The notes below the pieces were generated by a model. The model saw only the letters and a program-made list of their open reading frames with translations. It did not search any database and had not been told where the DNA came from. A stretch of DNA of 64,000 nt from Candidatus Bathyarchaeia archaeon (GTDB taxonomy: Archaea > Thermoproteota > Bathyarchaeia > Bathyarchaeales > Bathycorpusculaceae). Position 1 is the stretch's first letter; each line of letters starts with the position of its first letter. Positions 11,610 to 53,901 of this stretch are shown one piece after another. The DNA is taken from positions 64,001 to 128,000 of the forward strand of contig JAVZLK010000003.1 in the NCBI GenBank assembly GCA_038883795.1. The letters are read 5' to 3'. The position numbers were made by a program, and so were the translations under genes.

Positions 11610-11684
11610 AGTAATAAAAGAATTTATTCCTTCTCATCTTTAGATTTAAGTGCAGCCTATCCTTTTTCATTTTAGGGCGAAAAT

Positions 11685-17642: not shown

Positions 17643-17734
17643 TCAGCCCAAAGGAAACTGTTTCAGATTTTCCTATTTAAATGGTTTAGATAATATTTTG
17701 GTTTTAAAAAGAGCGATTAAAGGAGAAGATTGTT

Positions 17735-18184
17735 CTAGCTTGTTGGTGCTTGTTCTGGGAATGGACCTAAAGGCTGTTGTCCGGCTAAGGGTATAATCTT
17801 GAAGTAATACGTAGTTCCCGCAGTCCAGTTATACTCCACGGTGAGCCTAACGATTTGGCCTGCTGCAAGTGAAACCGGAAGTGAGGGAGTTGTTGTTTGG
17901 TTTTGTAATGTTGTGGATGAAGTTCCAATGTAAACTTGAATTATTTGGGTGTCTGAAGTTCCAGAGTTACCCACGTCGATGTCTATTTTCTTTGTTACGC
18001 CTTCTGTGTAGAATCTTACGTTTGCTTTGTATAGGATTACACCTGCGTGTGTCCCTGCGCTGCTCATGTATGTCATTATCCAAGCGTATGTGACGACTAT
18101 GGCGGCTACGGCTATAACTATTAGTAAGAGTGTGGCGAGAATTGGAGATATAGCCTTTTTAGTTTTTAACAGACTTTTAGCCAT
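17735..18184 (-). CDS. Archaeal type IV pilin (probable major pilin)
   Basis: Class III signal peptide KKA|ISPILATLLLIVIAVAA; 149 aa with Ig-like head (VGNSG). Confidence 0.9.
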   Translation of the reverse strand: MAKSLLKTKKAISPILATLLLIVIAVAAIVVTYAWIMTYMSSAGTHAGVILYKANVRFYTEGVTKKIDIDVGNSGTSDTQIIQVYIGTSSTTLQNQTTTPSLPVSLAAGQIVRLTVEYNWTAGTTYYFKIIPLAGQQPLGPFPEQAPTS

Positions 18185-18291
18185 ACGGTTTTCACCCTTC
18201 TTGTTGTTTAGGAAATCTGAAGATTACTTATTTAACTTGTATGAACTTTGAATATGCATTTTAGATAAGTGTGCGCAATAGCGAACAGGGT

Positions 18292-20244
18292 TTAGTTTTC
18301 TGTGGTTACCGTTATTGTCGGCGGATACTCAACAAGAATCCATAAGCCAGAGGCGTTGGTGTCTCCACCTCTATAGATTGGCGTGTAACCTGTCCCAAAA
18401 GTTACGACCGCGCCGTACCAGCAAATATCTAGCGCGCTGGTAAAGCCCGTTACAGACGCTAGTGAACTTACTGGAAGAAGTTCGATTGCCCTTTGGGTAG
18501 GATAACTAGAACTTATTGTTCTTAGAGCGCCTGTCGGATTTCCGGTTGTGGTTTTATCATCAAAGTAGTACAACATTTTGTTGGATTCGTCTGAGAACAT
18601 TATTCCAAACCCTGCTGATGAAGAGTTTAGTTGTGCCCAGTGATGCTGCCAAACACCAGACCTGTTATAGAATAAATCATAAGCTGTAGAAACTTTTGGG
18701 TAGCCGTTTGGCAATGTACCATTTTCTGTTAACGAAGAAAAGCTACTTTGTGTGCTGACTCTTAATAGGCGTATTTCTGTTATGCTTCTTGGTTTGTCTG
18801 TTGAGTTAAGGAATATGAGGCGCAGTTGATAGGTGTAGTATGTGGCGTTCGCAGGAAGTGTTATAACAACATGAGCATAAAAGTTATAACATTGCGGATC
18901 GTCAACACCACCTGAAAATTCCGGTTCACCATGCACGATGCTTCTAACCGTACCGTTATATATGGTATACGCCCACTCAGGATCCGTATTGTCAGATTCA
19001 TCATTTATTTGCATAAGGTTTGTCGCGCTTGAAGTGCCTCCGACGGTTGCCGTCACCGTGAAACCAGTACTCGAAAGTGTAATGCTAAGTTTGCCGTTGC
19101 TGAGTGTTCTAGTAGAGGGACTATCTTTGAAGTAACGGTTGACATACGCCCATGGTGTTTGGATTGCGGTATCGCTTCCGTTCCACCATATGGTGACTTT
19201 TGTAACGTTTGGATTTATAAGGAAAACTATCATGTGTCTATTGCCGAAAACGCTTGCGTTGCTCGCTAAACCTAAAGGAATTTTGTAGTCTGAAGCCCAA
19301 TCTTCTATCTGGAATGGTACCTCTTGGTTTATGCCGTTTATGGTCTGATTAATGTGTATTGCTTTTACTGGTATTGGCGGTATTGGTTTTGCTTGTGTTG
19401 TCAATTGCAGGTTTTGTCCAAGCCATCGCATTGTGCCATTCTGCAGCAACTCAACAACTATTGTTGCGTCAGTTGCGCTTTTTAATGTTGAGTAAAACGT
19501 GTCGTTCCATGTTAACGTGCATATGTATCGGCTGAATGATGAAGCCACCACTATTAAGCCTCTTTGGTCTTCCACTTGGATGATGTATGAAGAGGGGTCT
19601 ACTCCGGATGGAATGTCAATGGTGTATGTGCCGTTTGCGTCCACATTCAATGTGCTTGGATTAATTGGTATCCATGTTGAGTTTTCGTAAACATAACGGT
19701 AAAACTTGAAGTTTTGCCTTCCTAAACTTAACAATGGTTCACCTTCATCTTTAGTTATTACTAGCACTGTTTGATTAGTCGGGGTTGTTTCCTTTATTTG
19801 GACTGTTAATTTGCATGAAGTTTCATAGGTCATTCCATACAATCCAAGACCAGTTAAGCTATAATTTACAGCCAGCTTTCCCCTACTCCAACTATTGTTT
19901 GTATACCAGTATGTGCTTAGGTCTACACTGCTTAAATTGAGTGAAGCTCCCAATTCTGGATGCATTCTGGCTATGTTCTCTAATCCGCTACGAGTAAAGT
20001 TTATGGCAAGTTCCCTTGCATATGAAGTGTTTCCAGTAACCTGCAACGCTGAACCATAATAGCCAACTGTAAAGCCTAAAATTTCTTTTAGGGCCATGTT
20101 TGTTTCGTCTATTGCGCTTAATATTTGAGGCTGAACCTGTATTGGACTGGTGCGTATTGTAGAGTAGGTTATTATGACTGTGGCTATGAGGATAACTGCG
20201 ACAAGCAAAGCCGCAATAATAGAATATTGACCCTTACAATTCAT
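18292..20244 (-). CDS. Large minor pilin / pilus-associated adhesin
   Basis: KG|QYSIIAALLVAVIL class III-like N-terminus, 650 aa beta-rich, many N-x-S/T sequons; inside the pilus operon. Confidence 0.7.
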   Translation of the reverse strand: MNCKGQYSIIAALLVAVILIATVIITYSTIRTSPIQVQPQILSAIDETNMALKEILGFTVGYYGSALQVTGNTSYARELAINFTRSGLENIARMHPELGASLNLSSVDLSTYWYTNNSWSRGKLAVNYSLTGLGLYGMTYETSCKLTVQIKETTPTNQTVLVITKDEGEPLLSLGRQNFKFYRYVYENSTWIPINPSTLNVDANGTYTIDIPSGVDPSSYIIQVEDQRGLIVVASSFSRYICTLTWNDTFYSTLKSATDATIVVELLQNGTMRWLGQNLQLTTQAKPIPPIPVKAIHINQTINGINQEVPFQIEDWASDYKIPLGLASNASVFGNRHMIVFLINPNVTKVTIWWNGSDTAIQTPWAYVNRYFKDSPSTRTLSNGKLSITLSSTGFTVTATVGGTSSATNLMQINDESDNTDPEWAYTIYNGTVRSIVHGEPEFSGGVDDPQCYNFYAHVVITLPANATYYTYQLRLIFLNSTDKPRSITEIRLLRVSTQSSFSSLTENGTLPNGYPKVSTAYDLFYNRSGVWQHHWAQLNSSSAGFGIMFSDESNKMLYYFDDKTTTGNPTGALRTISSSYPTQRAIELLPVSSLASVTGFTSALDICWYGAVVTFGTGYTPIYRGGDTNASGLWILVEYPPTITVTTEN

Positions 20245-20247
20245 TCA

Positions 20248-21555
20248 TTACACGCCTCCTACCTGTCCCAACTGCAAAACAACAAGCCTCGTGGCGTTAC
20301 TAGCCGTATACTCAGAACGATAAAGCCTGGGCTTATAATCACATAAAAGTCCCAGCGCAGTAAGCCGGATATCTGGTGTTCTGGTTAAACCCAACGCCAA
20401 AAAAGCGCCGGAAACAGTATGCCTAAAAACTGCTCCAGCAATCCAACCACTTACATTATTAAAAATGTATGTGGTTATTTTCAAGTTATATGTGCCTGTT
20501 ATCCATGAAGGTAACGCTCTAGTGGCGGTATGATAAGTGAATGGGTAAATACCGTAGTAATTGCAATAATACTTTGCTTCTGATGAAAGAGACACACTTG
20601 CCAAACTAGGATTATCGCCAGAATCACCAGTAATCCAACTGTCATCATGCGCGTAATTTTGATTATTCAGTCCCCTTAGAAAAGCGTTCAACCCAGCAGG
20701 TCCAGTTTGGTTCATTCCATAAATGCCCCAACCATTGTGACCATTTGCCAAGTTTACCGTATTCGTCACATAATAGAATGGATAGCCGACGATGCTAGTC
20801 CAAGTCCAATTGTAACGGCGTGTCATGTTCCCCAAAAAGTGACAGTAACGAGCATAATCATTAGAATATGGGGTTGTACAATACATCGACGGTATTGGTA
20901 CGGCTTCCCCGAATGTGTTTATGACTACAGCATTTCGAACAACCTCGCCTTGTAAACTTTGGTTGTTTAGTATTTGCGCTAGTTGTGCCGTGTTTTGCAC
21001 CATTACTGTTGTTTTGAAGTATGGCGATAACAGATTGTACAGGTCTTGAGCCAGGCTGTGCGCCGTATAGCCTGTAATCCACCATCCACGAGCATCACTG
21101 CAATTTAATATGTAAAGGGTTCCGCCGACTCCGCTTTCGCCAATCTTCTCGGGAATAACCTTAAAAGTCACGTTAGAAGAAGCAACAAGATAAGAGGCTG
21201 CATCTGAGCCTATTCCCAAACTTTCAGCATTAGAAATAGAAGTGATGAAACGATAAAGCTGTAAGCTGCTTCCGCCCTGTACTTCATAAACTGTTAAGTT
21301 GTAAATTATGTTGGGCGGCAAACAAGCGGAAAGCGCAACTTGAAGCTCACCCCAAGCCGAATCGCCGGGCGACTTGAACACCATCTCACTTAAACTATAA
21401 TTCACATTCAAAACTTCAAGCGTTGATAACGCCAATCTTCTAAGATTTAAAGGTGAAACCTCTCGTGGCGATGGCAAAACAGCGAAGAAAGCAGCAATTA
21501 GAAAAGCTCCTAAAATTATAACTATTACCAGCAAAACTTCAATTGTCCGCATCAT
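20248..21555 (-). CDS. Minor pilin-like protein with inserted extracellular domain
   Basis: MMRTIEVLLVIVII hydrophobic N-terminal helix with TIE; operon context. Confidence 0.65.
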   Translation of the reverse strand: MMRTIEVLLVIVIILGAFLIAAFFAVLPSPREVSPLNLRRLALSTLEVLNVNYSLSEMVFKSPGDSAWGELQVALSACLPPNIIYNLTVYEVQGGSSLQLYRFITSISNAESLGIGSDAASYLVASSNVTFKVIPEKIGESGVGGTLYILNCSDARGWWITGYTAHSLAQDLYNLLSPYFKTTVMVQNTAQLAQILNNQSLQGEVVRNAVVINTFGEAVPIPSMYCTTPYSNDYARYCHFLGNMTRRYNWTWTSIVGYPFYYVTNTVNLANGHNGWGIYGMNQTGPAGLNAFLRGLNNQNYAHDDSWITGDSGDNPSLASVSLSSEAKYYCNYYGIYPFTYHTATRALPSWITGTYNLKITTYIFNNVSGWIAGAVFRHTVSGAFLALGLTRTPDIRLTALGLLCDYKPRLYRSEYTASNATRLVVLQLGQVGGV

Positions 21556-21556
21556 T

Positions 21557-22783
21557 TTAGCCCACCACCTCGTAACCTTCTAAACTCCACAACGAAAGCT
21601 TAGCTTGATAGGCAATATTGTTAACAACAACTTGGCGCATATCAGTAGCAACCCACTCTTGACCGGTAGGGTCATTGCCAAAAACCACTGGAAAAGCCAT
21701 GGAGCTTATACCCCAAGGCATCAAAACAACACCAGTTTCTTGTGCGCTTTTTCTATAAGTGATGACCAGAATGCCGGGATTGTTTCTTATGTTTTGTGGG
21801 ATTGTGACATAAGCGTAAGGAAATCCTCCTACGCCATAATTAAGTAATCCCGTGGAATTTTCTATTGGTATCTGTCGAAGAGTAAAGTCGTCAGCTAATA
21901 TAACAAAAGTTGCGTTGAACGTGACTGCTGCAGTATCACCCATCTCATGTACATCATAACTGTGGGCAATCAGTATCCTTCCCTCTGCAAAATCATCGAT
22001 AAATGGGATTATATAGTTCGACGTGTATGTTACATGTTCATGATAACCCATACCCATAAGACCACCAAGGTAAGCATACACAATGAAAACGTAAGAGACT
22101 TCTTTTTTAACATTTGTAAATCTTAAAAGAACTGAACCTTGCGCATCAGTGAAATTGTCGCCATATTCTAATGCGTAAGAGGGGTATGGACCGCTACCTC
22201 CTTCAGAGACTGTGAGAAGACAATAGCTTATATGGGCATTTGCAAGCGGGAAGCCTACTCCAGTAACTGTAACACTTAGAATTAAGGGGTCTTTTAGCTG
22301 TACTTCTTCTATCGAAATCGTTACAATCGGAGTCATAGTTAATTGAAATCCATATGTTCCATTTATTCCAAGCAACTTCGCCACAGCTGAGTAGTTAATT
22401 ACCTCAGTATATGGCACTAGTAAGAAATTACCAAATCCCATGGTTATGTTACTATAAGTCAATCCCATCCTTGGGTAATAAACTGGTTCTCCAACTGAAG
22501 ACCGCAATCGCATAAGTGAAAACGGACTAAGTCTGTATTGTGTGAATTCTGGGTCTTGCAATCCAAAACCATAAGGAGTGCAATTGCTTTTACCCCAATC
22601 TGGTGGAATGCCTGGATTTAGGAGCATGTTGTCGAGGAGGTCGCTGCATTTTGTTGCAAGATATCTGTGACGCTGATATAGAATGGCTGTTTGGATTATC
22701 TGATTGAAAAGGCTTATGAAAAGTAATATGGCTCCCAAAAAAATTGTGACGGAAACCAAATGATCTATTGTTGAGCCAGCCAT
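21557..22783 (-). CDS. Minor pilin-like protein
   Basis: MAGSTIDHLVSVTIFL N-terminal helix, PG.P.DW motif; operon context. Confidence 0.65.
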   Translation of the reverse strand: MAGSTIDHLVSVTIFLGAILLFISLFNQIIQTAILYQRHRYLATKCSDLLDNMLLNPGIPPDWGKSNCTPYGFGLQDPEFTQYRLSPFSLMRLRSSVGEPVYYPRMGLTYSNITMGFGNFLLVPYTEVINYSAVAKLLGINGTYGFQLTMTPIVTISIEEVQLKDPLILSVTVTGVGFPLANAHISYCLLTVSEGGSGPYPSYALEYGDNFTDAQGSVLLRFTNVKKEVSYVFIVYAYLGGLMGMGYHEHVTYTSNYIIPFIDDFAEGRILIAHSYDVHEMGDTAAVTFNATFVILADDFTLRQIPIENSTGLLNYGVGGFPYAYVTIPQNIRNNPGILVITYRKSAQETGVVLMPWGISSMAFPVVFGNDPTGQEWVATDMRQVVVNNIAYQAKLSLWSLEGYEVVG

Positions 22784-22789
22784 TCTTGC

Positions 22790-23272
22790 TTAACCTCCAA
22801 AAGAGAGGCATATGGTTCCATTTGCGAACTTTTCAGCCCATATGCATGCGTTTGTAGAATTGCTAATGAAAACGGATTCACGCCAAGTAACATTTTGACC
22901 CAAAATAACCGAAGTCGTTACCGCAGTTCCAACAGTTCTCAGCTTAAGCGTTATCTCCAACACCTTACTTGAATTCAAAGCAGGATCCAAAACGGTCTTT
23001 AATGTTGCATTTCCGGTGTATGGATAATTCTCTATGAATGGTGGGACATCCACTTTTTGCGTAACGGTTCCAGCTGATATAGAATCATGGTTTAAGGCGA
23101 AATACACTTGCTGTATACTGCTTCCTAAATGACTTGCAGCCTCCTGAAGTGCAAGAGTTCTACGCGAATCCACCCAGATATTCATGAGCCAACTTGCCGT
23201 CAACGGAAAGAGGAAAATCTGCAAAATCAAAACTGGAACCATAATCACATACTCGATAGTTACATGCGGCAT
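22790..23272 (-). CDS. Minor pilin-like protein
   Basis: MPHVTIEYVIMVPVLIL; GGAGG SD favours ATG 23272 (alternative start 23293). Confidence 0.65.
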   Translation of the reverse strand: MPHVTIEYVIMVPVLILQIFLFPLTASWLMNIWVDSRRTLALQEAASHLGSSIQQVYFALNHDSISAGTVTQKVDVPPFIENYPYTGNATLKTVLDPALNSSKVLEITLKLRTVGTAVTTSVILGQNVTWRESVFISNSTNACIWAEKFANGTICLSFGG

Positions 23273-23285
23273 CCATAACCCCCTC

Positions 23286-24116
23286 CTATGCATGCAAGCC
23301 TAAAGAAACAACCACCTCACTAGTGTAAAATTCAATGATGGAGCCGCTTGGAACATTTAATGTCTCTTCCATCTCATCAAAATTGAAGAAGCTTTCACCA
23401 AGACCCAAACTACTTTTTGGAAAAGAAACACTTATTTTAACCGAATTAACACTACTATTAGTTTTAACTGAAACATTCCTTCCTGTAAGCGTTACAGACT
23501 GAGAAAGACGAGGATGCGTGCCAGTGGAAAGGATAGGCAAATAAAACTTGAAATAGTTCTTCACCTCTCCACCAGCAGAAATGGTCGAATTCAAAACCCT
23601 AATTATTGGAGCAACAACAACCCTTATGTAATTGCCATCAGCCATAGGTAACTTTTCAATAACATAAACATAGCTTACAGGCGCTGAAGGCCCAACTTGA
23701 AGGAAGGATCTATTGGATGGAAAGATGCTTTCATAATAGTTATTTCCAACCGAATATTTGCTTATAGGCATATTAAACAAAAGAATACCCGTAGTATAAT
23801 TTGCAAAGTAAACAGTTCCATTCACATAAACAGTATAATTCAAAGCTGCACTTTCAAAATTAACCTCTCCATACTTACTTGCGTAACGAACCGTCTGCGT
23901 ACGCCCAACAATCCAAGCCACATCATCAATTTGAAGCCCAATCGTCTGCATAAACTGTTTTACAGCGCTAAACTCGTTCTCAGCCATTCTCGCAGTCAAA
24001 AAGTTGTTGGCAAAAACAACAGCCACAAGAAGAAGCACAACCACAGCGCTTGTTAATATGACAGTAGAAATTGCTGGACTAACCCCTCGCCTATCTTTTC
24101 TAAACTTGAACTTCAC
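23286..24116 (-). CDS. Type IV pilin-like protein
   Basis: Class III signal peptide KDRRG|VSPAISTVIL. Confidence 0.8.
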   Translation of the reverse strand: MKFKFRKDRRGVSPAISTVILTSAVVVLLLVAVVFANNFLTARMAENEFSAVKQFMQTIGLQIDDVAWIVGRTQTVRYASKYGEVNFESAALNYTVYVNGTVYFANYTTGILLFNMPISKYSVGNNYYESIFPSNRSFLQVGPSAPVSYVYVIEKLPMADGNYIRVVVAPIIRVLNSTISAGGEVKNYFKFYLPILSTGTHPRLSQSVTLTGRNVSVKTNSSVNSVKISVSFPKSSLGLGESFFNFDEMEETLNVPSGSIIEFYTSEVVVSLGLHA

Positions 24117-24140
24117 AGTTCTCCTAATCGTTTTTCCCTC

Positions 24141-25841
24141 CTAACCAAAACTTATGAACATGGGCACCAACTTCGCTGCCAAAACAGCAATTATCACCAG
24201 AACAGCCGCATGCTTAAAGCCAGCAGCAACAGATTCCTCGCTGATTTTGCCAGCCACAATACCAATTAAATAGCTGTGGAAGATACATGAGGTAGTAAAC
24301 GTCATTATCAGTGGTGTTAAGTCTTTTTTCTGTCCAGTTTCAGCCACGCCAAGAGTGCCCGATGTGAAGCCTATCATCATTGTTGTTGTTGCCACAAGGA
24401 GAATAGCCGCGAAATAGGGCATCAGAATATATGGGCGAACAGCCATCTTCTTTTCTTTTTCAACCTCCTGCGTTAAATTGTTAAATCTTGCCAATGATTC
24501 TATCATGGCGATTGTTCCGCCGCCCACATCTATTGTTTCGACAAGTAGAAACATGACAATTTGTGCCATCCAGCTTCGCATTCGCTTGACAAAATCCATT
24601 ATAACCTTTCTTACCGGGACTCCCCAACTGATTTCAGAGCTTATTTTTCGCAGTTCTTTGCTGAATTCGCCATAATCTCGGTTGGCAAGACTTTCAATAC
24701 ATTTTTCTGGAGATAAGCCTGTCTTTCTGACCTCTGTTAAGTCTCTAAGGAAGCTGTTTATGCCTTGTTCTATGCTTGCCTTCTTTTTTGAGAGTCTGCT
24801 ATTAACAACTGCTGCTGGCGCTGTGGCAACGAAGAGGGATATGGCGATGGCAACTGGCATATCGATAATGTTTTGGAAGTTGCTGAAGAATGGCACCTCA
24901 ATGAAACCCATAAAGTTTGTCAAAAGCATAAACAATATTACGGCTATGATGCCGCAGATTCCAAAAACCTTGTATGGACGCATTTCCACAACTGGAGTTT
25001 TTGGTTGCATACTATGAGCCAAATAGATGAACATGAAAGAGAGCATGGGTGTGAACAAATAGGTGTACAAGATTATTCCAGAATACATGGATATACCAAC
25101 GCTGTAAATGGATTCTACGCTGAATAGTATGTAGAAGCAAAGGGACATCAAAACCATCACAATAATGAAAGTCTCTAGTAGCATTCCAAGTCTTTCAGCT
25201 GCAGCCTTAACACGCAGGGCTCTCGTTTTGAAAATGTCTTCAGCTTTTCTTTCGAGAAAATGTCCGATGTCACCGCCTATGATTACTGTTGAGGCGTAAC
25301 CAGAGAGGAAATCTTTGAATATGTCAAGGGGATTCTTCTTTGCGGCGTTCTCTATAGCTGAAAGGGGGTCTATGCCAAAAATCTCTACATCTTTTATTAT
25401 TTCCCTTGCCTCACTTCTCATGGCTGGCATTAGTTCGACTTCTGCAAGGCGCTTAAAACTTGTGTATGGTGCTATGCCACCTGAAGCCATGACGCTGATG
25501 TAAGCAGCCGCAAAGGGCATTTCCCTTTCAAGGTTGCTTGCCCTTTCACCAGCCCTTGAGATTGGTATAAGAAGGAAGCCTATCATCACATAAAATGGAA
25601 GGGGCACGAGGAAAATTATTGGGATGAAGCCGTAAAGGTAGAGGATAATTATTGATATTATTGAAATGGGAAGCGTTAAAGCTGCGATGAAAAACATTAG
25701 GGAAACGTAGGTTTGTGGGTAAATTTTGATTTTCGCCCTTTCAAGATAGTCCTTAAACTCGATGACATTTTTTAGAAAGGAAGGCGCAACCTTACCGAAG
25801 ATGCGAAAGGACCAAGCTTCAAGGGTTTCTAGAAACGGCAA
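24141..25841 (-). CDS. Type IV pilus membrane platform protein (TadC/ArlJ/T2SS-F family, two domains)
   Basis: Two T2SSF-like repeats with TM segments; directly downstream of the ATPase. Confidence 0.92.
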   Translation of the reverse strand: MPFLETLEAWSFRIFGKVAPSFLKNVIEFKDYLERAKIKIYPQTYVSLMFFIAALTLPISIISIIILYLYGFIPIIFLVPLPFYVMIGFLLIPISRAGERASNLEREMPFAAAYISVMASGGIAPYTSFKRLAEVELMPAMRSEAREIIKDVEIFGIDPLSAIENAAKKNPLDIFKDFLSGYASTVIIGGDIGHFLERKAEDIFKTRALRVKAAAERLGMLLETFIIVMVLMSLCFYILFSVESIYSVGISMYSGIILYTYLFTPMLSFMFIYLAHSMQPKTPVVEMRPYKVFGICGIIAVILFMLLTNFMGFIEVPFFSNFQNIIDMPVAIAISLFVATAPAAVVNSRLSKKKASIEQGINSFLRDLTEVRKTGLSPEKCIESLANRDYGEFSKELRKISSEISWGVPVRKVIMDFVKRMRSWMAQIVMFLLVETIDVGGGTIAMIESLARFNNLTQEVEKEKKMAVRPYILMPYFAAILLVATTTMMIGFTSGTLGVAETGQKKDLTPLIMTFTTSCIFHSYLIGIVAGKISEESVAAGFKHAAVLVIIAVLAAKLVPMFISFG

Positions 25842-27447
25842 TTGCTTTTACCTCCTCCCCAGCAACAACTTTTTCATAAATCTGTTTTGGTCTGGCGTAA
25901 TATTCTGCAATGATTGCAGCCACATCTTTGTAACTTCTTATGTTACGTTCACGCATCCAGTGGAGAATTTCTTTGCGCCTCTCTATCTCCTCAATTAACT
26001 CCTTTTTGGTTGCGCCTATGCGCTCAGAAATTTGCGACAACATCAAACTTTTGTCGAAGGCGGGTATGTGAGCGTCTTTTGTTGGGTGCCACTTGAAAGC
26101 ACATCTATAATCTTCGTAATCTGCGATTTCGTTGACATTAATTACACGTCTATACGCTTTCCTTTCGGCACCTTTTACCAAGTGAACCCTTTGAATGGAT
26201 AACACGATGTTCATCAATGGGATATAGGCTGGCGAAATGTCCATGGGCTTTGATGTTAACCGCTTAACTGCCGAATCTAAGTTTTCAGCGTGCATTGTGC
26301 ACATGCCACCGTGTCCTGTGGCTAAAGCTTGGAAGAGCACATAGGCTTCTTGCCCCCTCACCTCACCCACAATCAATATGTCTGGTCTATGTCTCATTGA
26401 AGTCTTTACTAAGTCAAAGAGGGTTACTTCGCCTACGCTGCTTCCGCCTAAGCCATAGCTTTGTCTGGCAATGAGCGAAACCCAGTTTTCATGGGGTAGG
26501 TTAAGCTCTGCCGTTTCTTCTATTGTTACTATTTTGCTTCCAGGCTTAATTAGGCAAGCTAAAGCGTTTAGGGCTGTGGTTTTCCCAGCAGCCGTTCCAC
26601 CCAAAACCATAATTGAAGCCCTATTTTCGAGGCAAAGCCAGAAATAGGCTGCCATCTCCTCTGAGAAGGTGCCCAAATTTATTAAGTCAATTATTGAATA
26701 GGGATCTTCTCTAAATTTCCTAATAGTGAAGGCTGTTCCAAAAGGCGTAACCTCACGTCTATAACATACTGCAAGTCTATGCTTGCCCGGCAGTGAAGCG
26801 TCCACTATGGGAAAGGCTGAACTTACATGTTTTCCAGCCATGTGCACAAGCTTTACAACCATGTTGTCGAGTTCTTCATCATTCTCAAATTCCAAATTTG
26901 TTTCAATACTCTCGTAGTTTCGGTGCCAAACATAAACTGGCTTGTTAACTCCATCACATGAAATATCCTCAATATTTGGATCCCGCATTAACGGGTCGAT
27001 TTTGCCAAAACCTACAAGGTCCCTTTCAGCATGATAGAGAATCTTATACCATGAAACGTCAGGGAGCCATCCCAAGCTTATGCGGTATTTGTCAACGATT
27101 TTTTTGGCTTCTTCTGCGAAGAATTTTCTGGGGTCAAGGATTTCCTCTTTTGGTGACTCTATTTCTGCCAATAAAATTTCTAATATGCGGTTGTAAACGC
27201 TTCTTTCAAGGGGGTCAAGCTGCAACTCATCTAAGATGTATTTGTACTCGCCAGTTTTTGGGTACTGAACTATTGCGACATGAGCAAATGGTTCATAGAG
27301 TGGGTACTTCTCAACAACTTTATATCCTCTCGGTATGGGTTTTGGTGGCGGTGGGGGAATAACTACTTTAGGCTTTCGTTTAATGTTAAATTTGACTCTC
27401 ACTCTTTTAAGTTTAGTTAACGTCTCTTTGAGCTTCAGTCGTGCCAT
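25819..27447 (-). CDS. Type IV pilus assembly ATPase (TadA/ArlI/VirB11 family)
   Basis: DPNIEDISCDG, FTIRKF, GGTAAGKTT, TIEE, RHRPDILIVGEVRG, TGHG, TMHA. Confidence 0.95.
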   Translation of the reverse strand: MARLKLKETLTKLKRVRVKFNIKRKPKVVIPPPPPKPIPRGYKVVEKYPLYEPFAHVAIVQYPKTGEYKYILDELQLDPLERSVYNRILEILLAEIESPKEEILDPRKFFAEEAKKIVDKYRISLGWLPDVSWYKILYHAERDLVGFGKIDPLMRDPNIEDISCDGVNKPVYVWHRNYESIETNLEFENDEELDNMVVKLVHMAGKHVSSAFPIVDASLPGKHRLAVCYRREVTPFGTAFTIRKFREDPYSIIDLINLGTFSEEMAAYFWLCLENRASIMVLGGTAAGKTTALNALACLIKPGSKIVTIEETAELNLPHENWVSLIARQSYGLGGSSVGEVTLFDLVKTSMRHRPDILIVGEVRGQEAYVLFQALATGHGGMCTMHAENLDSAVKRLTSKPMDISPAYIPLMNIVLSIQRVHLVKGAERKAYRRVINVNEIADYEDYRCAFKWHPTKDAHIPAFDKSLMLSQISERIGATKKELIEEIERRKEILHWMRERNIRSYKDVAAIIAEYYARPKQIYEKVVAGEEVKAIAVSRNP

Positions 27448-27512
27448 TGCGTTTTCTCCTAATCAATTATTATGATATGTACGGTCTATTAAATATTACG
27501 TCTCACGAAACT

Positions 27513-30179
27513 TTACTCCGACCCCTCTTCTTCACCCGCAGAAATTTCAATAATCTTCAACTTAACGAGCACGATGATCACGACGGCGATGATCAATGGA
27601 ATAAGAATTATTAGAAGCATAGTCATCCAAGGCAAACCTTCACTAGGCTTTGCTTCTGGGCTGACGGTTATTGAAATTTGCTCTTCTTCGCTTAAATATC
27701 CGTACTTTGTAGCGTTGGCAGTAATGTTGACAGTGAGCGATGTTGTTGTTTGAGGAGCAATGTAAACGAAGGTGCAATAGCCATCAGCATCCGTCCAATT
27801 TGTCGTGATAGGAATGCTTCCATCAGTGCATGAGAGAGTAACTGCTGCATTGAAAACTGGAGTTTGGTTGCAAGTGACATGCACACTTACTAAGGTAGAT
27901 TCCTCTGGAGCAATTGCTGACTTGACTATTATTTCGACATTGATTATTCCTGGATTGACGGCTATGTTAAGCCAATTTTCTCCATCAACGTATCCCTCTT
28001 TAGTTGCTTTCGCCAAAAGTGTTATGTTACATGCTTCATCCACTGGGGGCGCCGTGAAAGTGAATGTTGCAGTACCTGCCTCATCACTTAAGACAAAAGC
28101 TGGAATGAAATTTCCTCCACTTTCAGACGTCAATGTTATATTCGCTTCTGCAATTGGGTTTCCTTCGTATGACACCTGAACCGTCACAGCCATTTTTCCC
28201 TCTGAAGTGATGATAGCGGGATCTGCTGTGACTTCAACAAAAAGCACTTTTGGTTCTATAGGTATCGTGCATAAACCTTGTCCCTTTCCATAACCAGTTT
28301 TTGTGGCAATAACCAGAATAGTACTGTTTATTTGAGTTAAGGTTTGAGAGGCTGTAAAACTGAAAATTGCCATACCATTGGCGTCTGTAACGCCTGTTGT
28401 TGCCGAAAGGTCACCATTTTCAGCGGATAGCGTAAGCGAAACATCGGAAACGGGTATTTCAAAACTATCCAACACTTGAACTGTGATTGTTGCTGTTTCT
28501 TCAGATTTAAGCGTAGGTGGGTCAGCGCTCATTTGAACAGTAAGGGGTGGAATAACTTTCAAATAATCGTGGGCTGAACCATCAGTGTAAGAAAGTTTTG
28601 AAGCCCTCGCAATGATTCTAACATCCGTCACTTCAGTGACATTTGGCGCTTTAAACACAGCAGTAAAATAACCTGAGGAATTTGTTAACCCAGAAAATGG
28701 CGTGAAAATTCCACCTTTTACAGAGAAAAATGTTACATTCGCATTTTCTACAGCACTTGTCCCGTAAGAGACATAAGCAGTAACAAAAACCTCATCATTA
28801 TATTCCACCTTATAATTACTAAGAGTAATAGATACCTTTAAAGATGGTAGGTTCATAACGTTTATTTGTGCAGAAACAATATTGCTTGTAACGTTGAAAT
28901 CGTCCCTAACTTTTAATCTCACAGAATAGGTACCTACGGAAGAATAGTTATAGGTGAAGAGGGATAGGGTTGTCCAGTCGCTGCTTTTTCCATCACCGAA
29001 ATCGTAGAAGTAATAGTTAATTCGTCCGTCATCATGGGAGTCAGCACCTACGAAGGTGACTGGTTGATTTGGCGCAACTAAAACCTTATCTGTCCAGAGA
29101 ATTGCCGTTGGAGGAGCATTACTGTAATCTATGGGATGCGTTAAGAAGAAGATGAAGTCAAGATTAATCCCATCACCGCCAACCGGATTTCCTTTTCCAT
29201 GCGGGTTTAATGTTGGATGGTAAGGTCCACTTTCGTTGCCCCAATAATTGTATGTTGCATCCACAGTGGCTCCAGAGGAAACGTCCATGCCTAACTCGTT
29301 GCCAGTTATGTCGTTGAAATGGGCTATATGGCCTGTTCCGCTTTCATACATGATTCCAACATGATTGTTCAAAATGTAATTTCTTGTAATGTTGGTAACA
29401 GCATCGCTTGAAACGCAAAAACCATAATTGTTTTGTGAAACTGTGTTATTCACGATAACAGTGTTGCCATAAGTTTCAGCCTCGCAGAGTATTCCGCTGT
29501 GCTGGTTAAAGGATATTTCGTTTTGAGTTATGCTTACTGATGTTAAAACTCCGTTTAATATTATGCCGTCTCCATTACCGCTTACGAAGTTATTCAACAC
29601 ATAGACTTGGCTGCCACCACTTACGAAAATTCCACCTACACTGTTGTTTAACACCTCACAATCTTCAACATGCACATAGCCACCAAAAATTGCAACTCCA
29701 TTTTCAGAATTGTATCTAACAGTGCTTTCTTGAATATTCACATAACCATTTTCTACGGTTATCCCATTCAAGCCATATTCTATAATACAATTTGAGAGTA
29801 AAGATTCTTGTGCAGAATTAAACCAAAGCGTTCCCCATCCGCCAGCTTTAGGTTCAAGCTCGTTTGAAGTAAACCTTATCGTTTTATCCTCTGTGCCTTC
29901 TGCAATAAGTTTGCCTTCTATGGTTATGTTAAAAAATCCTCCAAAGCGCACTTCAACCCCTGGCTCAATGGTTAAAGTTGCATTGGAACAAACTATAGTT
30001 TCGTTTGAAATTATGAAGGGACTTTCCACAAGAGTCCATGTAGTATCTAATGTAATGTATCCTTCAACATAAGTTGCTCTTACAGGAAGAAATAACATTA
30101 TGTTTGCAAAACTAAAAATGCTAAAAATCAAAGTTAACAGAATAAAGTATGCCCTAAATTGCTTCTTCATGTTTTCCAT
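27513..30179 (-). CDS. Membrane-anchored surface adhesin: beta-helix + PKD + four Ig-like (Big-1-like) repeats
   Basis: Signal peptide; parallel beta-helix (I..N.I..N..GI); PKD (YDFGDG...YSSVGTYSVRLKVRDD); four repeats ending A.K.GY; C-terminal TM. Confidence 0.82.
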   Translation of the reverse strand: MENMKKQFRAYFILLTLIFSIFSFANIMLFLPVRATYVEGYITLDTTWTLVESPFIISNETIVCSNATLTIEPGVEVRFGGFFNITIEGKLIAEGTEDKTIRFTSNELEPKAGGWGTLWFNSAQESLLSNCIIEYGLNGITVENGYVNIQESTVRYNSENGVAIFGGYVHVEDCEVLNNSVGGIFVSGGSQVYVLNNFVSGNGDGIILNGVLTSVSITQNEISFNQHSGILCEAETYGNTVIVNNTVSQNNYGFCVSSDAVTNITRNYILNNHVGIMYESGTGHIAHFNDITGNELGMDVSSGATVDATYNYWGNESGPYHPTLNPHGKGNPVGGDGINLDFIFFLTHPIDYSNAPPTAILWTDKVLVAPNQPVTFVGADSHDDGRINYYFYDFGDGKSSDWTTLSLFTYNYSSVGTYSVRLKVRDDFNVTSNIVSAQINVMNLPSLKVSITLSNYKVEYNDEVFVTAYVSYGTSAVENANVTFFSVKGGIFTPFSGLTNSSGYFTAVFKAPNVTEVTDVRIIARASKLSYTDGSAHDYLKVIPPLTVQMSADPPTLKSEETATITVQVLDSFEIPVSDVSLTLSAENGDLSATTGVTDANGMAIFSFTASQTLTQINSTILVIATKTGYGKGQGLCTIPIEPKVLFVEVTADPAIITSEGKMAVTVQVSYEGNPIAEANITLTSESGGNFIPAFVLSDEAGTATFTFTAPPVDEACNITLLAKATKEGYVDGENWLNIAVNPGIINVEIIVKSAIAPEESTLVSVHVTCNQTPVFNAAVTLSCTDGSIPITTNWTDADGYCTFVYIAPQTTTSLTVNITANATKYGYLSEEEQISITVSPEAKPSEGLPWMTMLLIILIPLIIAVVIIVLVKLKIIEISAGEEEGSE

Positions 30180-30318
30180 CTCTCAGTTATCAAGTATCGC
30201 TATGCCACTAACAGTTTAAGCATTATGAATTCTGAATAAAACTTCAAAATCTGTAATAAGCGTCTTAGCAAGAGATTTAATGCCGTAAGATAACAACCAT
30301 AACAAGAGGAGGAAAAAT

Positions 30319-50075: not shown

Positions 50076-50758
50076 TGCTGGCTTTTATGCGAGTTGCAGT
50101 TTTAGCCACAGGCGGAAAAGACTCCACCTTAGCGCTTAAAAAAGTATTAGATCAAGGTTATGAAGTGAAGTATTTAGTGAGCATGATTCCTTTAAGGGAA
50201 GACAGCTGGATGTTCCATTACCCAAACATCCGCCTAGTAGACCTATTTTCAAAAGCGGTGGAAATCCCCCTAGTAAAGGCTGAAACTTTAGGGATTAAGG
50301 AAAAAGAGGTTGAAGACCTCAAGCGGGTTATTGAAAAACTTGACGTTGACGCCATAGTTTCAGGAGCCATAGCCTCCAACTACCAAAAAACAAGGGTTGA
50401 AAAAATCTGCGAACAGTTAAACCTGAAATGTTTAACGCCCCTTTGGCAAAAAAATCCCATAGAAATTTTAGAAGAAATCGTGAACCTTAAATTTCATGTT
50501 ATCATAACTGGAGTTTACGCTTATGGCTTTAACAGAGAATGGCTTGGAAAGAAAATTAACGAAAAAACAATAGAAGCCCTAAAGGAATTGAGCAGACAAT
50601 ATGGCGTTTCAGTTGTTGGTGAGGGAGGAGAATACGAAACCCTAGTGCTTGACGCTCCATTCTTCAAAAAAAGAATAAAAATTGTTGAAGTGGAAAAAGT
50701 TTGGAAAAACCAAAGCGGCTATTTGCTGGTTAAAAAAGCGGAGCTTGAAAACAAATGA
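50075..50758 (+). CDS. dph6: Diphthine--ammonia ligase (Dph6)
   Basis: PP-loop TGGKDS, SWMFH, GAIASNYQ, PLW, GEGGEYETLVLDAP. Confidence 0.9.
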   Translation: MLAFMRVAVLATGGKDSTLALKKVLDQGYEVKYLVSMIPLREDSWMFHYPNIRLVDLFSKAVEIPLVKAETLGIKEKEVEDLKRVIEKLDVDAIVSGAIASNYQKTRVEKICEQLNLKCLTPLWQKNPIEILEEIVNLKFHVIITGVYAYGFNREWLGKKINEKTIEALKELSRQYGVSVVGEGGEYETLVLDAPFFKKRIKIVEVEKVWKNQSGYLLVKKAELENK

Positions 50759-50818
50759 ATTAGGTATTAAAAGCGTGAGCTTTATAGTTTTCAAATTGCA
50801 TTTATTTTTGGGAGTCTT

Positions 50819-52057
50819 ATGGTTGAAGAAAGCGATATAATAGAATTTCTCAAGGTTCATGATGGTAAGGCCTCCTTAAACGATGTTGCCACGGGTTTGG
50901 GAATACCAAAATATGGACCAAACTCTGCCTATGCTCTTTTACAATCCCTAAAAAATAAGGGTGTTGTGGAACGCCGTGGCGAACTCTGGACACTTATTAT
51001 GGAGGAGGTTAAGCCCAAAGAAAAAGCGACAGTAGCGCCTGCTCCAGCACCACCATCAACAGTGGAAAAAGAGGCCGTTATGCCTGATGTTGAAAAACTT
51101 ATGAAGGCTATGGCAAAAACCATCGCGGAAGCAATGAAAGGCGCTCAAGTTCCACCAGATGAGTGGGAACTGGCGACAAAACCGATGACAACAAAAATTG
51201 AAAGAAAAGAGGAAAAGTTAAGCGCTCTTGTATTAAAGCCAGATGAGGCTGTTGAAGCCAAAAAACCCTTAATAGGATTTCCAACAGGCACGTATTTAGA
51301 CTATTTCTTCTTAACGCCGGAAGGAAAACCCCTAAACGGATTGCCAATATGTGGACAATTCGCCATAACAGGCTTGCCGGGCGCTGGAAAATCGATTCTT
51401 GTTGAAGAAATAGCCGTAAGAGTGGCAGCTTCTGGAAGAAAAGTGCTTTACGCAACAGCAGAAGACACATGGAAAAGCGCCACTCCACGCTTTGACTTGC
51501 AATCTCGCTTAAAACAGAAGGCTGAAATCTTGGGTTTAGACTGGAATAAAATCCGTGAAAACCTTTTTGTGCTTGACACAGTGGCCTATCCTGAACTCCG
51601 CGACTGGAGCACCTTCGCAGAAACATATCGTTACGTTGCAGAAAAGGAGAAAATAGAATTAGCCATAATCGATTCTGTGACCGTTCTTGAAGCCTACCGT
51701 GGAGCCCTAAAATATCGTGTCATGGAAATAGCCAGATACAACCAAGTCCACGGTATAACCGCCCTCTACGTCAATCAGCGAAGTTCAGAAGTTTGGGACA
51801 GCTATGACATGGCAGGCGGAATAGGCCTAGCCCATAATCTCGATGGGACAATAATAGTGGATTATGGGCGTGTTTATTGGCAAGACCAGCAAGTGGATTT
51901 AGCCGTTAACAGAGGTGAATTCGTCCGCATATCAAGAGTTTTAGATTGCAGAATGTGCAATTTTGAGAGGAGAAGAATAAGGGTTGACATAACACCAGAC
52001 GGCTTTCTGAGAGCCATGGAACCCATACCAAAGGTGGAAGGAACAAAATCCCAGTGA
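50819..52057 (+). CDS. RecA/KaiC-superfamily ATPase (AF_0795-like) with N-terminal winged helix
   Basis: Walker A GLPGAGKS, Walker B AIIDS, AGG..LAH..DG, VR..R..DCRMC; N-terminal wHTH plus Pro/Ala/Glu linker. Confidence 0.8.
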   Translation: MVEESDIIEFLKVHDGKASLNDVATGLGIPKYGPNSAYALLQSLKNKGVVERRGELWTLIMEEVKPKEKATVAPAPAPPSTVEKEAVMPDVEKLMKAMAKTIAEAMKGAQVPPDEWELATKPMTTKIERKEEKLSALVLKPDEAVEAKKPLIGFPTGTYLDYFFLTPEGKPLNGLPICGQFAITGLPGAGKSILVEEIAVRVAASGRKVLYATAEDTWKSATPRFDLQSRLKQKAEILGLDWNKIRENLFVLDTVAYPELRDWSTFAETYRYVAEKEKIELAIIDSVTVLEAYRGALKYRVMEIARYNQVHGITALYVNQRSSEVWDSYDMAGGIGLAHNLDGTIIVDYGRVYWQDQQVDLAVNRGEFVRISRVLDCRMCNFERRRIRVDITPDGFLRAMEPIPKVEGTKSQ

Positions 52058-52066
52058 AAAGGCAAC

Positions 52067-53863
52067 ATGTCAATAGTTAAACCGCCTTCCTTCGAAGAAC
52101 TTGTTAAGGCATATGGTTCGCCAAAAAAAGCGGTGCTTCACCTACTAGAAGCTGGATTTTCACCAGAACAGATAACATGGAAAATTGGAATTCCATATCA
52201 CCGCTTACGCCTTTACATGGAAGGAATAGAACCAAAAATAGAGATGTCGTTCTCAAAAATAGTTGAGGTTTATGAGCGCCTCGCAGTCTTACGTGGAAAA
52301 AAGGGGAAAGAAACTGAACTTACAAAATTCTTCCAAAATGAAGATTTACCGTTAGAAATTAAAGCCCGCTTCGCCATTGGAACAATAACAGAAGAGAACC
52401 TAAAAATTGGACCTGGCTTAATTGAGAGAAGCATAAGCCTAGCCACAGACACCCCGTTAAGCGATGTTAGAAAATTTTTGATAGATTATGGAGAGCACGG
52501 CGAAGTTGCTTACTTGCTAAAAAAGCCTAAAAATCCAGAATTGACCGTTGGAGAAGTCTATGAAGCCATTAAATTTTTGCCAAAATTGGGAAGGATTATG
52601 GAAAGGGAACTTTACATTTCAAGCCTTCTGCGAATAAGCACACCAACAGAGGCAAAATATGTTGTCAGACTTCTGCTTGGAGATTTAAAACTTGGCTACT
52701 ACGCCAGCACAGTCGTTAGAGCAGTAGCAAGAGCATATGGAGTGCCGCCCCAACTAGTTGAAAATGCCTCAGCCATACTGGGCTTACCAGAAGCTATGAC
52801 ACTCGCCTCAGAAGGAGCGCTTAAACTTTCAGAGGTTAAAATGCGCCCAGGCCAGTTTATCAAACCTCAACTTGCCCACCTTTACGAGCCAGACAAAGTT
52901 GTTTATCCAGCTAGAGCAGAATATAAACTGGATGGAAGTAGACTCCAAATCCATAAGTGGGGCACCCAAATTTGGCTTTACTCGAGAAGAGGCGTTGAAA
53001 AATCCCAAACGTTGCCTGAAATAGTGCAAATAGCTGAAAATTTCAAGGCGCAAAGCTGTATTGTGGACAGCGAAGTCATAGCCACGGACGATTCTGGAAA
53101 CCCGTTACCTTTTCAAACATTGCTTGAGAGAACAGTTCCAAGAGAACTCACACCTGAAGAACTAGAAGAGAGAAAAAGAAAAGTTAAGGTTACCGTTAAA
53201 GCCTTTGACATACTATTCCTAAACGGTCAAGAACTCGTGAACTTACCCCTTTCGACTAGGCGAAAATACCTATTAGAAGTTGTTCCAACAGAATACATTG
53301 TGGGAGGAGTTGACTGCCAAAGCGAAGTTGAGCTTATGCGCTTTTACGAAGAAGCCTTAAATAAAAAATTTGAAGGAATAGTTGTAAAGAACTTGAATTC
53401 GCCATACGAAATCGGACAACGCACATACACATGGCTTAAACTTAAACCAGAACGAGACACGATAGACTGCACAATAGTAAAAGCCCTATACGGAAAGGGC
53501 AGAAGGGCAGGCCTATACTCGTCATTCCTACTCGCAGTCCGCGACCCCACAGAAAAGAAGCTTTACACAATTGGCAAAGTCTCAAACTTGCCGGAAGAAA
53601 CCATGGACGCCCTAAGAACAATGGTTGAAAACACAAAAACAGGCGAAGATGAAGAAGGCGTATTCGTTAAACCTTCATTGGTGGCGGAAGTTACATATCA
53701 AGAAATTCAAGAAACAGATGAATACACAAGCGGTTTCGCCCTAAGAGTGCCAAAAATTGTTAGGTTTAGAACAGATAAAACCGTTAATGAAATGGACAGC
53801 GTTGAAAAATTGAAAAAACTTTACGAATTGCAATATGAAAGATACCCAGCTCAAACAATTTAG
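52067..53863 (+). CDS. lig: ATP-dependent DNA ligase with extra N-terminal HTH-like segment
   Basis: EYKLDGSR (motif I), YSRR, DSE, FDIL, EGIVVK, WLKLK, ALRVPK..RTDK; DNA-binding domain begins near residue 59. Confidence 0.9.
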   Translation: MSIVKPPSFEELVKAYGSPKKAVLHLLEAGFSPEQITWKIGIPYHRLRLYMEGIEPKIEMSFSKIVEVYERLAVLRGKKGKETELTKFFQNEDLPLEIKARFAIGTITEENLKIGPGLIERSISLATDTPLSDVRKFLIDYGEHGEVAYLLKKPKNPELTVGEVYEAIKFLPKLGRIMERELYISSLLRISTPTEAKYVVRLLLGDLKLGYYASTVVRAVARAYGVPPQLVENASAILGLPEAMTLASEGALKLSEVKMRPGQFIKPQLAHLYEPDKVVYPARAEYKLDGSRLQIHKWGTQIWLYSRRGVEKSQTLPEIVQIAENFKAQSCIVDSEVIATDDSGNPLPFQTLLERTVPRELTPEELEERKRKVKVTVKAFDILFLNGQELVNLPLSTRRKYLLEVVPTEYIVGGVDCQSEVELMRFYEEALNKKFEGIVVKNLNSPYEIGQRTYTWLKLKPERDTIDCTIVKALYGKGRRAGLYSSFLLAVRDPTEKKLYTIGKVSNLPEETMDALRTMVENTKTGEDEEGVFVKPSLVAEVTYQEIQETDEYTSGFALRVPKIVRFRTDKTVNEMDSVEKLKKLYELQYERYPAQTI

Positions 53864-53901
53864 TTTTACTGTGGATGAACTTTGACTATTTCTCAAAATG
53901 G

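Follow-up and report, generated by a model that had tools for sequence, protein, structure and literature searches.

What does a gene for a KaiC-like ATPase do directly in front of a gene for a divergent DNA ligase, and do the two products act together? The question is raised by a locus in a 64,000-nucleotide stretch of DNA (hereafter the window; positions 64,001 to 128,000 of contig JAVZLK010000003.1, assembly GCA_038883795.1) from a Candidatus Bathyarchaeia archaeon, whose assembly comprises 2.18 Mb on 81 contigs and is 87% complete. The upstream gene encodes an ATPase in which a winged helix-turn-helix (wHTH) is joined to a KaiC/RecA-type domain, while the downstream gene encodes a divergent ATP-dependent DNA ligase to which we give the name ligX (Table 1). 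An earlier reading of the letters alone, made without database searches (the sequence-only reading), had singled out these two genes, correctly placed 9 nt apart on the plus strand, as a possible repair or end-joining system in which the ATPase targets or regulates a second ligase. The answer that we favour, with belief and doubt evenly balanced, is that the ATPase and ligX form a PCNA-independent DNA repair/recombination module common to Bathyarchaeia and their viruses.

The usual picture of archaea is that of a single replicative ATP-dependent ligase tethered to PCNA. The genome studied here has two matches to the adenylation-domain model PF01068, namely ligX and a 564-amino-acid ligase on contig C5. 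Against the Pyrococcus and Thermococcus ligase structures (2cfm, 3rr5, 4eq5), the C5 ligase scores 498-525 bits, with the 525 bits to P. furiosus 2cfm, and ligX scores 246-252 bits, about half as much. The two paralogues share 36% identity over 455 amino acids, and their DNA-binding domains (DBDs) barely align by BLAST. Given a separate canonical ligase on another contig, ligX is a divergent second ligase, as had been supposed from the letters. Its three ligase domains are all recognized by Pfam, with DNA_ligase_A_N (PF04675) at 58.5 bits (cut-off 24.6), DNA_ligase_A_M (PF01068) at 146.4 bits (E 1.1e-42; cut-off 26.2) and DNA_ligase_A_C (PF04679) at 49.3 bits (cut-off 27.5), and TIGR00574 matches at 290.1 bits (cut-off 217.8).

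The residues that we take to be those of nucleotidyl-transferase motifs I (K287-x-D289-G290), III (D334/E336), IV (E436-G437..K441), V (W456-L-K458-x-K460) and VI (L559-R-V-P-K563..R566.R568..K571) are invariant in 49 ligX sequences, and from this conservation ligX is predicted to be catalytically intact. Two departures from the canonical motifs had been remarked on in the sequence-only reading. One, LRVPK in place of LRFPR, is a fixed feature of the 49 sequences; the other, DSE in place of DGE, is not, with DGE found in 2 of 9 aligned relatives, and the catalytic glutamate is kept in either form. In pairs with unsaturated synonymous sites, dN/dS of ligX is about 0.06.

The DBD of ligX differs from that of the canonical enzyme in a specific way. 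A 9-residue gap occurs at the position of a canonical loop in every ligX (9/9) aligned with canonical Bathyarchaeia ligases; the C5 ligase keeps Q-A-T-L-F at this position, and the loop residues of the Thermococcus ligase fall into insert states when aligned to ligX. In P. furiosus Lig, the DBD loop 103-QKSFF-107 is given as a PCNA-binding motif in an excerpt of PMC6212441, and an excerpt of PMC13136779 terms the same loop the PIP-loop in other archaeal ligases. The alignments indicate that ligX has lost the DBD loop used by canonical archaeal ligases for PCNA binding, and the enzyme may well act independently of PCNA. Both its closest-orthologue score and its lack of a PIP-like loop set ligX apart from a canonical PCNA-dependent replicative ligase.

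A second peculiarity is an N-terminal extension ahead of the DBD. Because solved archaeal ligases align to ligX only from residue 60-62 onward, the extension is real, and the earlier estimate of about 58 extra residues agrees well with the approximately 60 that are conserved in 50 orthologues, in which P6, P7, L26 and G30 are invariant. The AlphaFold2 (AF2) model places helices at residues 9-16, 19-28, 33-40 and 44-51 (pLDDT 82.7). Foldseek returned no PDB match to the extension at E<=0.001, and VIA-align gave weak similarities, the best with a Z of 4.3, to the helix-turn-helix (HTH) domains of KorB/ParB, Tc3, IstA and sigma region 4. The four helices and these matches are consistent with the HTH-like character proposed earlier; a best Z of only 4.3 leaves that part of the claim loose. 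Homology of the extension to near_KaiC_dom (TIGR03879) was considered and set aside, since no similarity could be demonstrated (no HMMER match at E<=10; hhalign probability 0.3).

How closely is ligX tied to the ATPase in other genomes? We scanned species representatives (one genome per species, ATPase at >=64% identity), which yielded 80 loci, as well as an evenly drawn sample of 201 Bathyarchaeia genomes (the class sample) and a sample of 401 genomes from the phylum. All but one of the 80 loci, which is titled ‘uncultured archaeon’, carry Bathyarchaeia/Bathyarchaeota titles. A full-length ligX lies downstream on the same strand at 59 of them, ligX is cut by a contig end at 7, a broken copy or remnant is found at 5, and 6 have no ligX; the remaining 3 have no downstream sequence and are uninformative. 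The adjacency survey that the first reading had called for thus places ligX downstream at 66 of 77 informative loci (including the 7 cut by a contig end). Among the 59 full-length copies, 56 begin no more than 60 nt from the ATPase, and in the other 3 one unrelated gene intervenes; the gap ranges from -1 to about 60 nt among orthologous loci. Bathyarchaeia-type metagenome loci have ligX downstream in 70 of 72 informative cases, with lineages that overlap the genome set and are not independent of it.

While a ligase of some kind was matched in 196 of the 201 class genomes, the ATPase was matched in 25 (E<=1e-10), of which 14 have a full-length ATPase (>=57% identity). With a ligX-type match defined by >=53% identity, extension included, intact ligX is present in G000 (the genome studied here), G190, G163, G008, G145, G130, G029, G001 and G003; in addition, both genes lie at contig ends in G082, ligX is split into two frames in G031, and a fragment is left in G053. 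Throughout the class sample, each ligX-type match directly follows the ATPase gene in the same orientation, and in none of these 201 genomes was a ligX found away from it. In the phylum sample the ATPase was matched in 15 of 401 genomes (E<=1e-15), the sole one outside the class being G203, in which a wHTH-less ATPase overlaps the start of a ligX that keeps the N-terminal extension (the contig ends after 358 codons).

The genes around the pair are less constant than the pair itself. Among closer families the flanks are syntenic, with GGR and diphthamide synthase genes upstream and a convergent block downstream that encodes a CxxCxxCC protein, a thioesterase, a methyltransferase and an Lhr helicase; in distant families the flanks consist of varied housekeeping genes. 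No conserved third gene was found beside ATPase and ligX across the families examined. Since the flanks change and no third gene is conserved, the pair is the unit under selection. The pairing is far beyond chance and recurs across families with different flanking genes. ATPase and ligX constitute a vertically inherited, often lost Bathyarchaeia operon, with one copy in another class of the phylum.

The spacer between the two genes leaves no room for a second promoter, and thus ATPase and ligX are probably co-transcribed. A TATA-like box upstream of the ATPase start codon, identified by reading the sequence, is a possible promoter for the operon. One 325-nt contig bridges the ATPase/ligX junction and provides no transcript evidence; the four runs compared were represented by contigs alone, two runs with a metatranscriptomic label are flagged ‘probably DNA’, and no RNA dataset is listed for window positions 50700-53900.

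The ATPase is a multidomain protein, and here the Pfam matches and the AF2 model agree with the wHTH, long linker and KaiC domain read from the letters. Pfam KaiC (PF06745) matches residues 173-395 (E 3.6e-20; 72.8 bits, cut-off 26.6), HTH_IclR matches residues 6-53 right at its cut-off (E 1.4e-4; 22 bits) and TrmB matches at E 2.8e-3. In the AF2 model, based on a 64-row alignment (pLDDT 87), the winged helix has the topology H-E-H-H-E-E at pLDDT 96-98. The linker that follows varies in sequence and length among orthologues. Next comes a pre-domain with predicted helices at residues 89-107, 115-124 and 131-136; 49 orthologues all share its residues P112, W116, A119 and P122. In the ATPase core the invariant positions in these 49 sequences are the Walker A motif, E215/D216, D285 of Walker B and C377-R378, the last two residues belonging to the CRMC motif that had already been noticed. 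What is conserved throughout the family is the ATPase core together with the helices of the pre-domain, and not the wHTH.

By fold, the ATPase is closest to PH0284, a hexameric ATPase of the RecA superfamily (2dr3, Foldseek E 4.7e-15), the KaiC CI domain and PH0186, while phmmer found no match among PDB sequences at E<=0.01. It scores below the equivalog cut-offs for RadB (16.8 bits, cut-off 172.4), RadA (15.3, cut-off 259) and Sms (21.4, cut-off 403). The label ‘AF_0795-like’, used in the sequence-only reading, is a loose fit: the corresponding thermo_KaiC_2 model (TIGR03878) is the nearest curated family, and the score of 117.7 bits is below its cut-off of 232.2. A search of 1.84 billion cluster representatives returned 97 clusters at E<=1e-3, 29 of them at E<=1e-30; the family is narrow. 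Values of dN/dS are 0.04-0.05 in pairs with unsaturated synonymous sites. We place the ATPase in the RecA superfamily, among proteins of the KaiC/RadA-paralogue kind; it is probably an oligomer that works on DNA.

Table 1. Positions in the window of the ATPase-ligX operon, its parts and other features discussed in the text.
Feature	Window position	Strand	Basis
ATPase gene (wHTH-KaiC/RecA-type), 412 aa	50819..52057	+	open reading frame (ORF) call, Pfam, AF2 model
ATPase N-terminal wHTH, aa 1-60	50819..50998	+	HTH_IclR/TrmB, AF2
ATPase disordered Pro/Ala/Glu-rich linker, aa 63-88	51005..51082	+	pLDDT <50
ATPase helical pre-domain with DEWELATKP motif, aa 89-136	51083..51226	+	AF2, conservation
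ATPase KaiC/RecA-like domain, aa ~150-400	51266..52018	+	Pfam, invariant columns, fold matches
ATPase Walker A GLPGAGKS, aa 185-192	51371-51394	+	sequence
Intergenic spacer, 9 nt	52058..52066	+	window sequence
ligX gene (divergent ATP-dependent DNA ligase), 598 aa	52067..53863	+	ORF call, three ligase domains
ligX N-terminal extension, aa 1-60, four-helix HTH-like bundle	52067..52246	+	conservation, AF2
ligX DBD, aa 61-221	52247..52729	+	PF04675
ligX PIP-loop deletion site, between K155 and N156	about 52531/52532	+	alignment gap
ligX adenylation domain, aa 282-460	52910..53446	+	PF01068
ligX OB-fold domain, aa 480-571	53504..53779	+	PF04679
Candidate TATA-like box TTTATAG, ~32 nt 5' of ATPase start codon	50781..50787	+	sequence reading alone
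Lhr-family helicase, 959 aa	55900-58779	-	
XPD-type helicase	8773-10887	-	
DUF72 protein	10884-11633	-	
XPF/ERCC4-HhH nuclease	11676-12335	+	
Type IV pilus/archaellum-like locus	16830-30182	-	
Six consecutive ORFs of the pilus-like locus	17738-24140		no Pfam match at E<=1e-6
Very large ORF, 1251 aa	33812-37564	+	F5/8 type C domain only
Very large ORF, 1022 aa	39298-42363	+	no Pfam match at E<=1e-6

Is the pair confined to cells? IMG/VR was scanned with winged-helix-less relatives of the ATPase, and five viral contigs (uncultivated virus genomes, UViGs) of 93-128 kb were found to encode wHTH-less ATPase relatives. Direct terminal repeats flank four of the five, which CheckV rates as 100% complete; Terminase_6N is matched in 3/5, and their layout is one of many small co-directional ORFs, most of which have no Pfam match. 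G543 encodes a 582-aa ligX-type ligase on the same strand as the ATPase, about 1 kb further downstream and beyond three small ORFs; in G544 a 547-aa ligX-type ligase lies about 6 kb downstream; and in G545 a 229-aa minimal ligase lies 750 nt upstream. The G543 ligase aligns to ligX residues 1-587 (588 aa), extension included, at 34% identity, and scores 335 bits to ligX compared to 142 bits to the canonical Bathyarchaeia ligase. Both viral ligX-type ligases carry the N-terminal extension, and the viral ATPase relatives retain the helical pre-domain; to TIGR03878, the viral relative scores 91 bits. At two viral loci (L241, L243) and two metagenome loci (L161, L162) the ATPase is near PAPS-reductase-like (PF01507) and ThiF/E1-like (PF00899) genes, neighbours that are reminiscent of DNA-modification or conflict modules.

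The ATPase phylogeny was a quick IQ-TREE run with SH-aLRT support and the ligase phylogeny was built with FastTree; both were midpoint-rooted. The ATPase tree has a viral/metagenomic clade (SH-aLRT 98), which includes both ligX-linked viruses, as sister to the cellular clade (90), with a joint node at 93. The ligase tree recovers all 14 of 14 cellular ligX in one clade (support 0.91), with the two viral ligases as sister, and the 13 canonical ligases lie across the midpoint root from ligX and the viral ligases. The trees also agree in placing G203, G001 and G003 at the base of the cellular clade. The ATPase and ligX combination occurs in large double-stranded DNA viral genomes, so that viruses and hosts have at some time exchanged the module. 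The pair has therefore travelled between viruses and cells as a unit, with midpoint rooting leaving the direction open.

An intact second ligase that has lost the loop and gained a new N-terminal domain, the near-obligate position of ligX next to a single narrow family of ATPases, in varied gene contexts and in viruses too, and the strong purifying selection on both genes point to functional coupling. We infer that ATPase and ligX are coupled, physically or functionally, and that their role would lie in repair or recombination. In such a module, the ATPase would bind or remodel broken or nicked DNA, through annealing, synapsis or loading, and ligX would seal the strands so prepared; the N-terminal domain of ligX could replace the PIP loop as a recruitment handle, by binding either the ATPase or DNA. 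A complex prediction for ATPase residues 1-400 and ligX residues 1-598 (49-row alignments), run without controls, gave ipSAE values of 0.01 and 0.07 against a mark of 0.32, which tells neither for nor against binding. A second ligase behind an ATPase, also found in viruses, suggests an undescribed DNA-joining pathway.

Several observations weigh against this reading. The genomes are all metagenome bins, many of them close kin, and the locus counts are not independent events. Two of the five viral genomes (G542 and G546) have no ligase near the ATPase. The ligX N-terminal extension has only weak fold matches (best Z 4.3), nearly all of them to small HTH DNA-binding domains. At 11 or more of the 77 genome loci the ATPase is intact whereas ligX is broken or missing; it has no ligX in three genera of family f4 (G124, G110 and G062, the last with a ligX fragment 4 kb away) and in several other lineages, and these ligX-less copies have dN/dS values of 0.05-0.11. 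Because it is kept intact without ligX, the ATPase must have a ligase-independent role. Finally, in family f2 a wHTH-ATPase offshoot with 36-40% identity forms a fast-evolving long branch nested in the Bathyarchaeia clade and has no ligase; at two of its three loci (L024/G056 and L026/G106) it is the last gene of an operon that also encodes a THEP1-like NTPase and RNase HII on the same strand. The RNase HII operon is another link of this family to a nucleic-acid enzyme. At the third f2 locus (L025 in G196) the neighbour is a TnpB-like fragment.

The dependence is one-sided: ligX was always found with the ATPase, and the ATPase has no need of ligX. The ATPase does not appear to serve the ligase alone, being intact and under purifying selection where ligX is lost, and its winged helix is dispensable for the pairing, as G203 and the viral copies are paired without it. 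The ligX-less lineages are scattered among the ligX-bearing ones on the ATPase tree, which points to several independent losses of ligX. In G136 (L023) and G053 (L028) the modules are decayed, with deletions that fuse an ATPase fragment to the ligase C-terminus. At L114, L138 and L234 the first 45-87 ligX codons, corresponding to the N-terminal extension, alone remain behind an intact ATPase, and at two of the five species-representative loci with a broken copy or remnant the N-extension ORF is all that is left of ligX.

The survival of the ATPase where ligX has been lost keeps alive the explanation that it is mainly a regulator, i.e., a KaiC-like signalling ATPase with a DNA-binding wHTH that controls transcription of ligX and of further genes, perhaps when DNA is damaged or the cell is heated, with ligX as its first target and not a physical partner. 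The wHTH matches regulator domains of the IclR/TrmB type, and a ‘probable regulatory domain’ protein (TIGR03879) is the partner of thermo_KaiC_2, the curated family closest to the ATPase. Archaeal KaiC-like ATPases have reportedly been proposed as signal-transduction hubs. The pairing with ligX, however, persists where the ATPase has no wHTH (G203; viral G543 and G544), the wHTH is not among the parts conserved across the family, and the 9-nt operon spacing is atypical of a regulator and its target, though known to occur. With the wHTH-less pairs weakening it, we regard this explanation as unlikely.

Rather unlikely, too, is that the ATPase serves as a ring-forming, PCNA-replacing loader for ligX, the pair being a virus-derived, clamp-independent ‘recombinase-ligase’ machine domesticated by Bathyarchaeia. 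A KaiC-like oligomer would then assemble on broken or nicked DNA and capture ligX via its N-terminal helical domain, and would use ATP to align or anneal strands ahead of sealing; once domesticated, the machine could serve genome maintenance at high temperature.

Could the module instead matter mainly to viruses? The pair might be a domesticated or virus-serving replication/recombination module, with ligX as the viral ligase and with an ATPase that acts for the virus as a recombinase, an annealase or a helicase-like protein; the chromosomal copy would then be important mainly in virus-host conflict or in recombination with viral DNA, and not for repair of the host genome. The viral homologues of the two genes lie close together on the same strand, the viral copies branch as the sister group of the cellular ones in the ATPase and ligase trees alike, and the distribution in hosts is patchy (25/201 class genomes, 15/401 phylum genomes). 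The ATPase also has weak, P-loop-level matches to PHROG primases/helicases (E 1.9e-5), and its neighbours in the Atlas are viral KaiC/DnaB_C clusters (0.89-0.91), which is a lead only. Against this, the window is ordinary chromosome (XPD, XPF, a type IV pilus-like locus, glycosyltransferases and TBP), with a housekeeping context that is syntenic across families, and no integrase, other viral genes or signs of an integrated element were seen in it. Purifying selection is strong, inheritance is vertical with independent losses, and PADLOC-DB 2.0 returned one partial P-loop match of the ATPase to mad8 (E 1.5e-5), with no stretch passing alone, and no match for ligX. Midpoint rooting, moreover, leaves the direction of transfer open in both trees. 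On balance a primarily viral function is improbable.

A very improbable explanation is that the two genes are mere operon neighbours without a joint function, with ligX as a back-up nick-sealing ligase and the ATPase as an unrelated KaiC-like protein. There is no direct evidence for an interaction, the ATPase survives alone, and close relatives contribute much of the adjacency signal; yet in the class sample ligX never occurs apart from the ATPase, the two stay together as the flanks change and recur together, at 34-50% identity, in viruses and in a further class, and their trees are congruent. That ligX has shifted in substrate, for example to RNA-splinted or RNA-strand joining or to modified ends, within an RNA/hybrid repair system is scarcely credible: the DBD is its most diverged part and BLAST aligns it poorly to the canonical paralogue, a few orthologues carry a weak precomputed PF09414 RNA_ligase label, which is also seen on the viral ligases (E 7e-9 to 4e-10), and the f2 ATPase homologues adjoin RNase HII, but ligX has retained all three DNA-ligase domains and each of the six nucleotidyl-transferase motifs, and the PF09414 matches fall within the shared adenylation fold and are far weaker than the PF01068 ones.

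Other genes in the window encode nucleic-acid enzymes and surface structures. The Lhr-family helicase, convergent with ligX and 2 kb downstream of it, has DEAD, Helicase_C, WH_Lhr and DEAD_assoc domains and scores 391 bits to TIGR04121 (‘ligase-associated DNA damage response DEXH box helicase’; cut-off 850) and 532 bits to NF010338 (cut-off 849). We considered it as a member of the module and rejected it; it is syntenic in closer families only and stays where ligX is lost. Elsewhere in the window, genes for an XPD-type helicase, a DUF72 protein and an XPF/ERCC4-HhH nuclease are found together. The type IV pilus/archaellum-like locus encodes a prepilin peptidase, a T2SSF-like platform protein, a T2SSE ATPase and a large beta-helix/PKD/Big_1 surface protein, and two very large ORFs stand amid glycosyltransferase genes.

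The pair is a testable candidate for a clamp-independent joining pathway, and the link to ligX provides a functional foothold on the large uncharacterised families of archaeal KaiC-like ATPases. It is also an example of a replication/repair module common to uncultivated archaea and their viruses. Possession of the module may go with thermophily, as is said of the ‘thermo_KaiC’ families. Two public runs that contain at least half of the operon's sampled words are labelled hot springs metagenome, and many titles among the related metagenome-assembled genome records look like those of hot-spring isolates. With a hot-spring origin, a possible practical use is as a thermostable ligase with an accessory factor.

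How does the pair compare with known systems? No description of the ATPase-ligX pair was found in the literature, searched at abstract level and with a comparative survey of archaeal KaiC-like ATPases outside our reach. Canonical archaeal Lig (P. furiosus/Thermococcus; 2cfm, 3rr5, 4eq5) has the DBD, adenylation and OB-fold domains and motifs I-VI in common with ligX. It has the PIP loop and is without the N-terminal domain of approximately 60 aa, whereas ligX has the domain and not the loop, and is encoded with an ATPase.

For the ATPase core, the closest curated family is the thermo_KaiC_2/AF_0795 type (TIGR03878), whose gene is also found just upstream of that of an HTH-bearing partner. True thermo_KaiC_2 members, which score 389 bits in other Bathyarchaeia, form a long separate branch on the ATPase tree; their partner is the near_KaiC_dom protein (TIGR03879), whereas that of the window ATPase is a ligase, and the window ATPase adds the wHTH and the helical pre-domain. 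At L027, L029, L030, L032 and L033 a thermo_KaiC_2 gene is followed by a gene for a TIGR03879 protein of approximately 200 aa (110-118 bits) with a sigma-4-like HTH, a second conserved ‘KaiC-like ATPase plus HTH partner’ pair in Bathyarchaeia. The best structural matches to the ATPase domain, PH0284, PH0186 and KaiC CI (Foldseek E 5e-15 to 6e-14; target TM about 0.75-0.82), share 15-22% identity with it and have no wHTH, pre-domain or ligase partner. The archaeal RadA paralogues RadB and aRadC, which act in recombination/repair, have a KaiC-like RecA-superfamily core as the ATPase does, and a DNA-repair setting is plausible for the ATPase too; the RadB/RadA models score 15-17 bits against cut-offs of 172-278, so that the ATPase is not one of them. 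We know of no linkage to a ligase for either RadB or aRadC.

Break rejoining in archaea without Ku is poorly understood. No match to Ku (PF02735) was found in this genome (87% complete), and none in the operon. Bacterial LigD-Ku, the bacterial ‘ligase-associated DNA damage response’ operons of Lhr-type helicase and ligase, and eukaryotic Lig4-XRCC4 and Lig3-XRCC1 follow a similar logic, in which an accessory ligase is combined with a targeting domain and a dedicated partner. The partner in those systems is Ku, XRCC4 or a helicase, whereas that of ligX is a KaiC/RecA-type ATPase. While both superfamilies are already known, what is new here is the ligX family, with its N-terminal extension and loop loss, the ATPase as its dedicated partner, and the sharing of the two between viruses and hosts.

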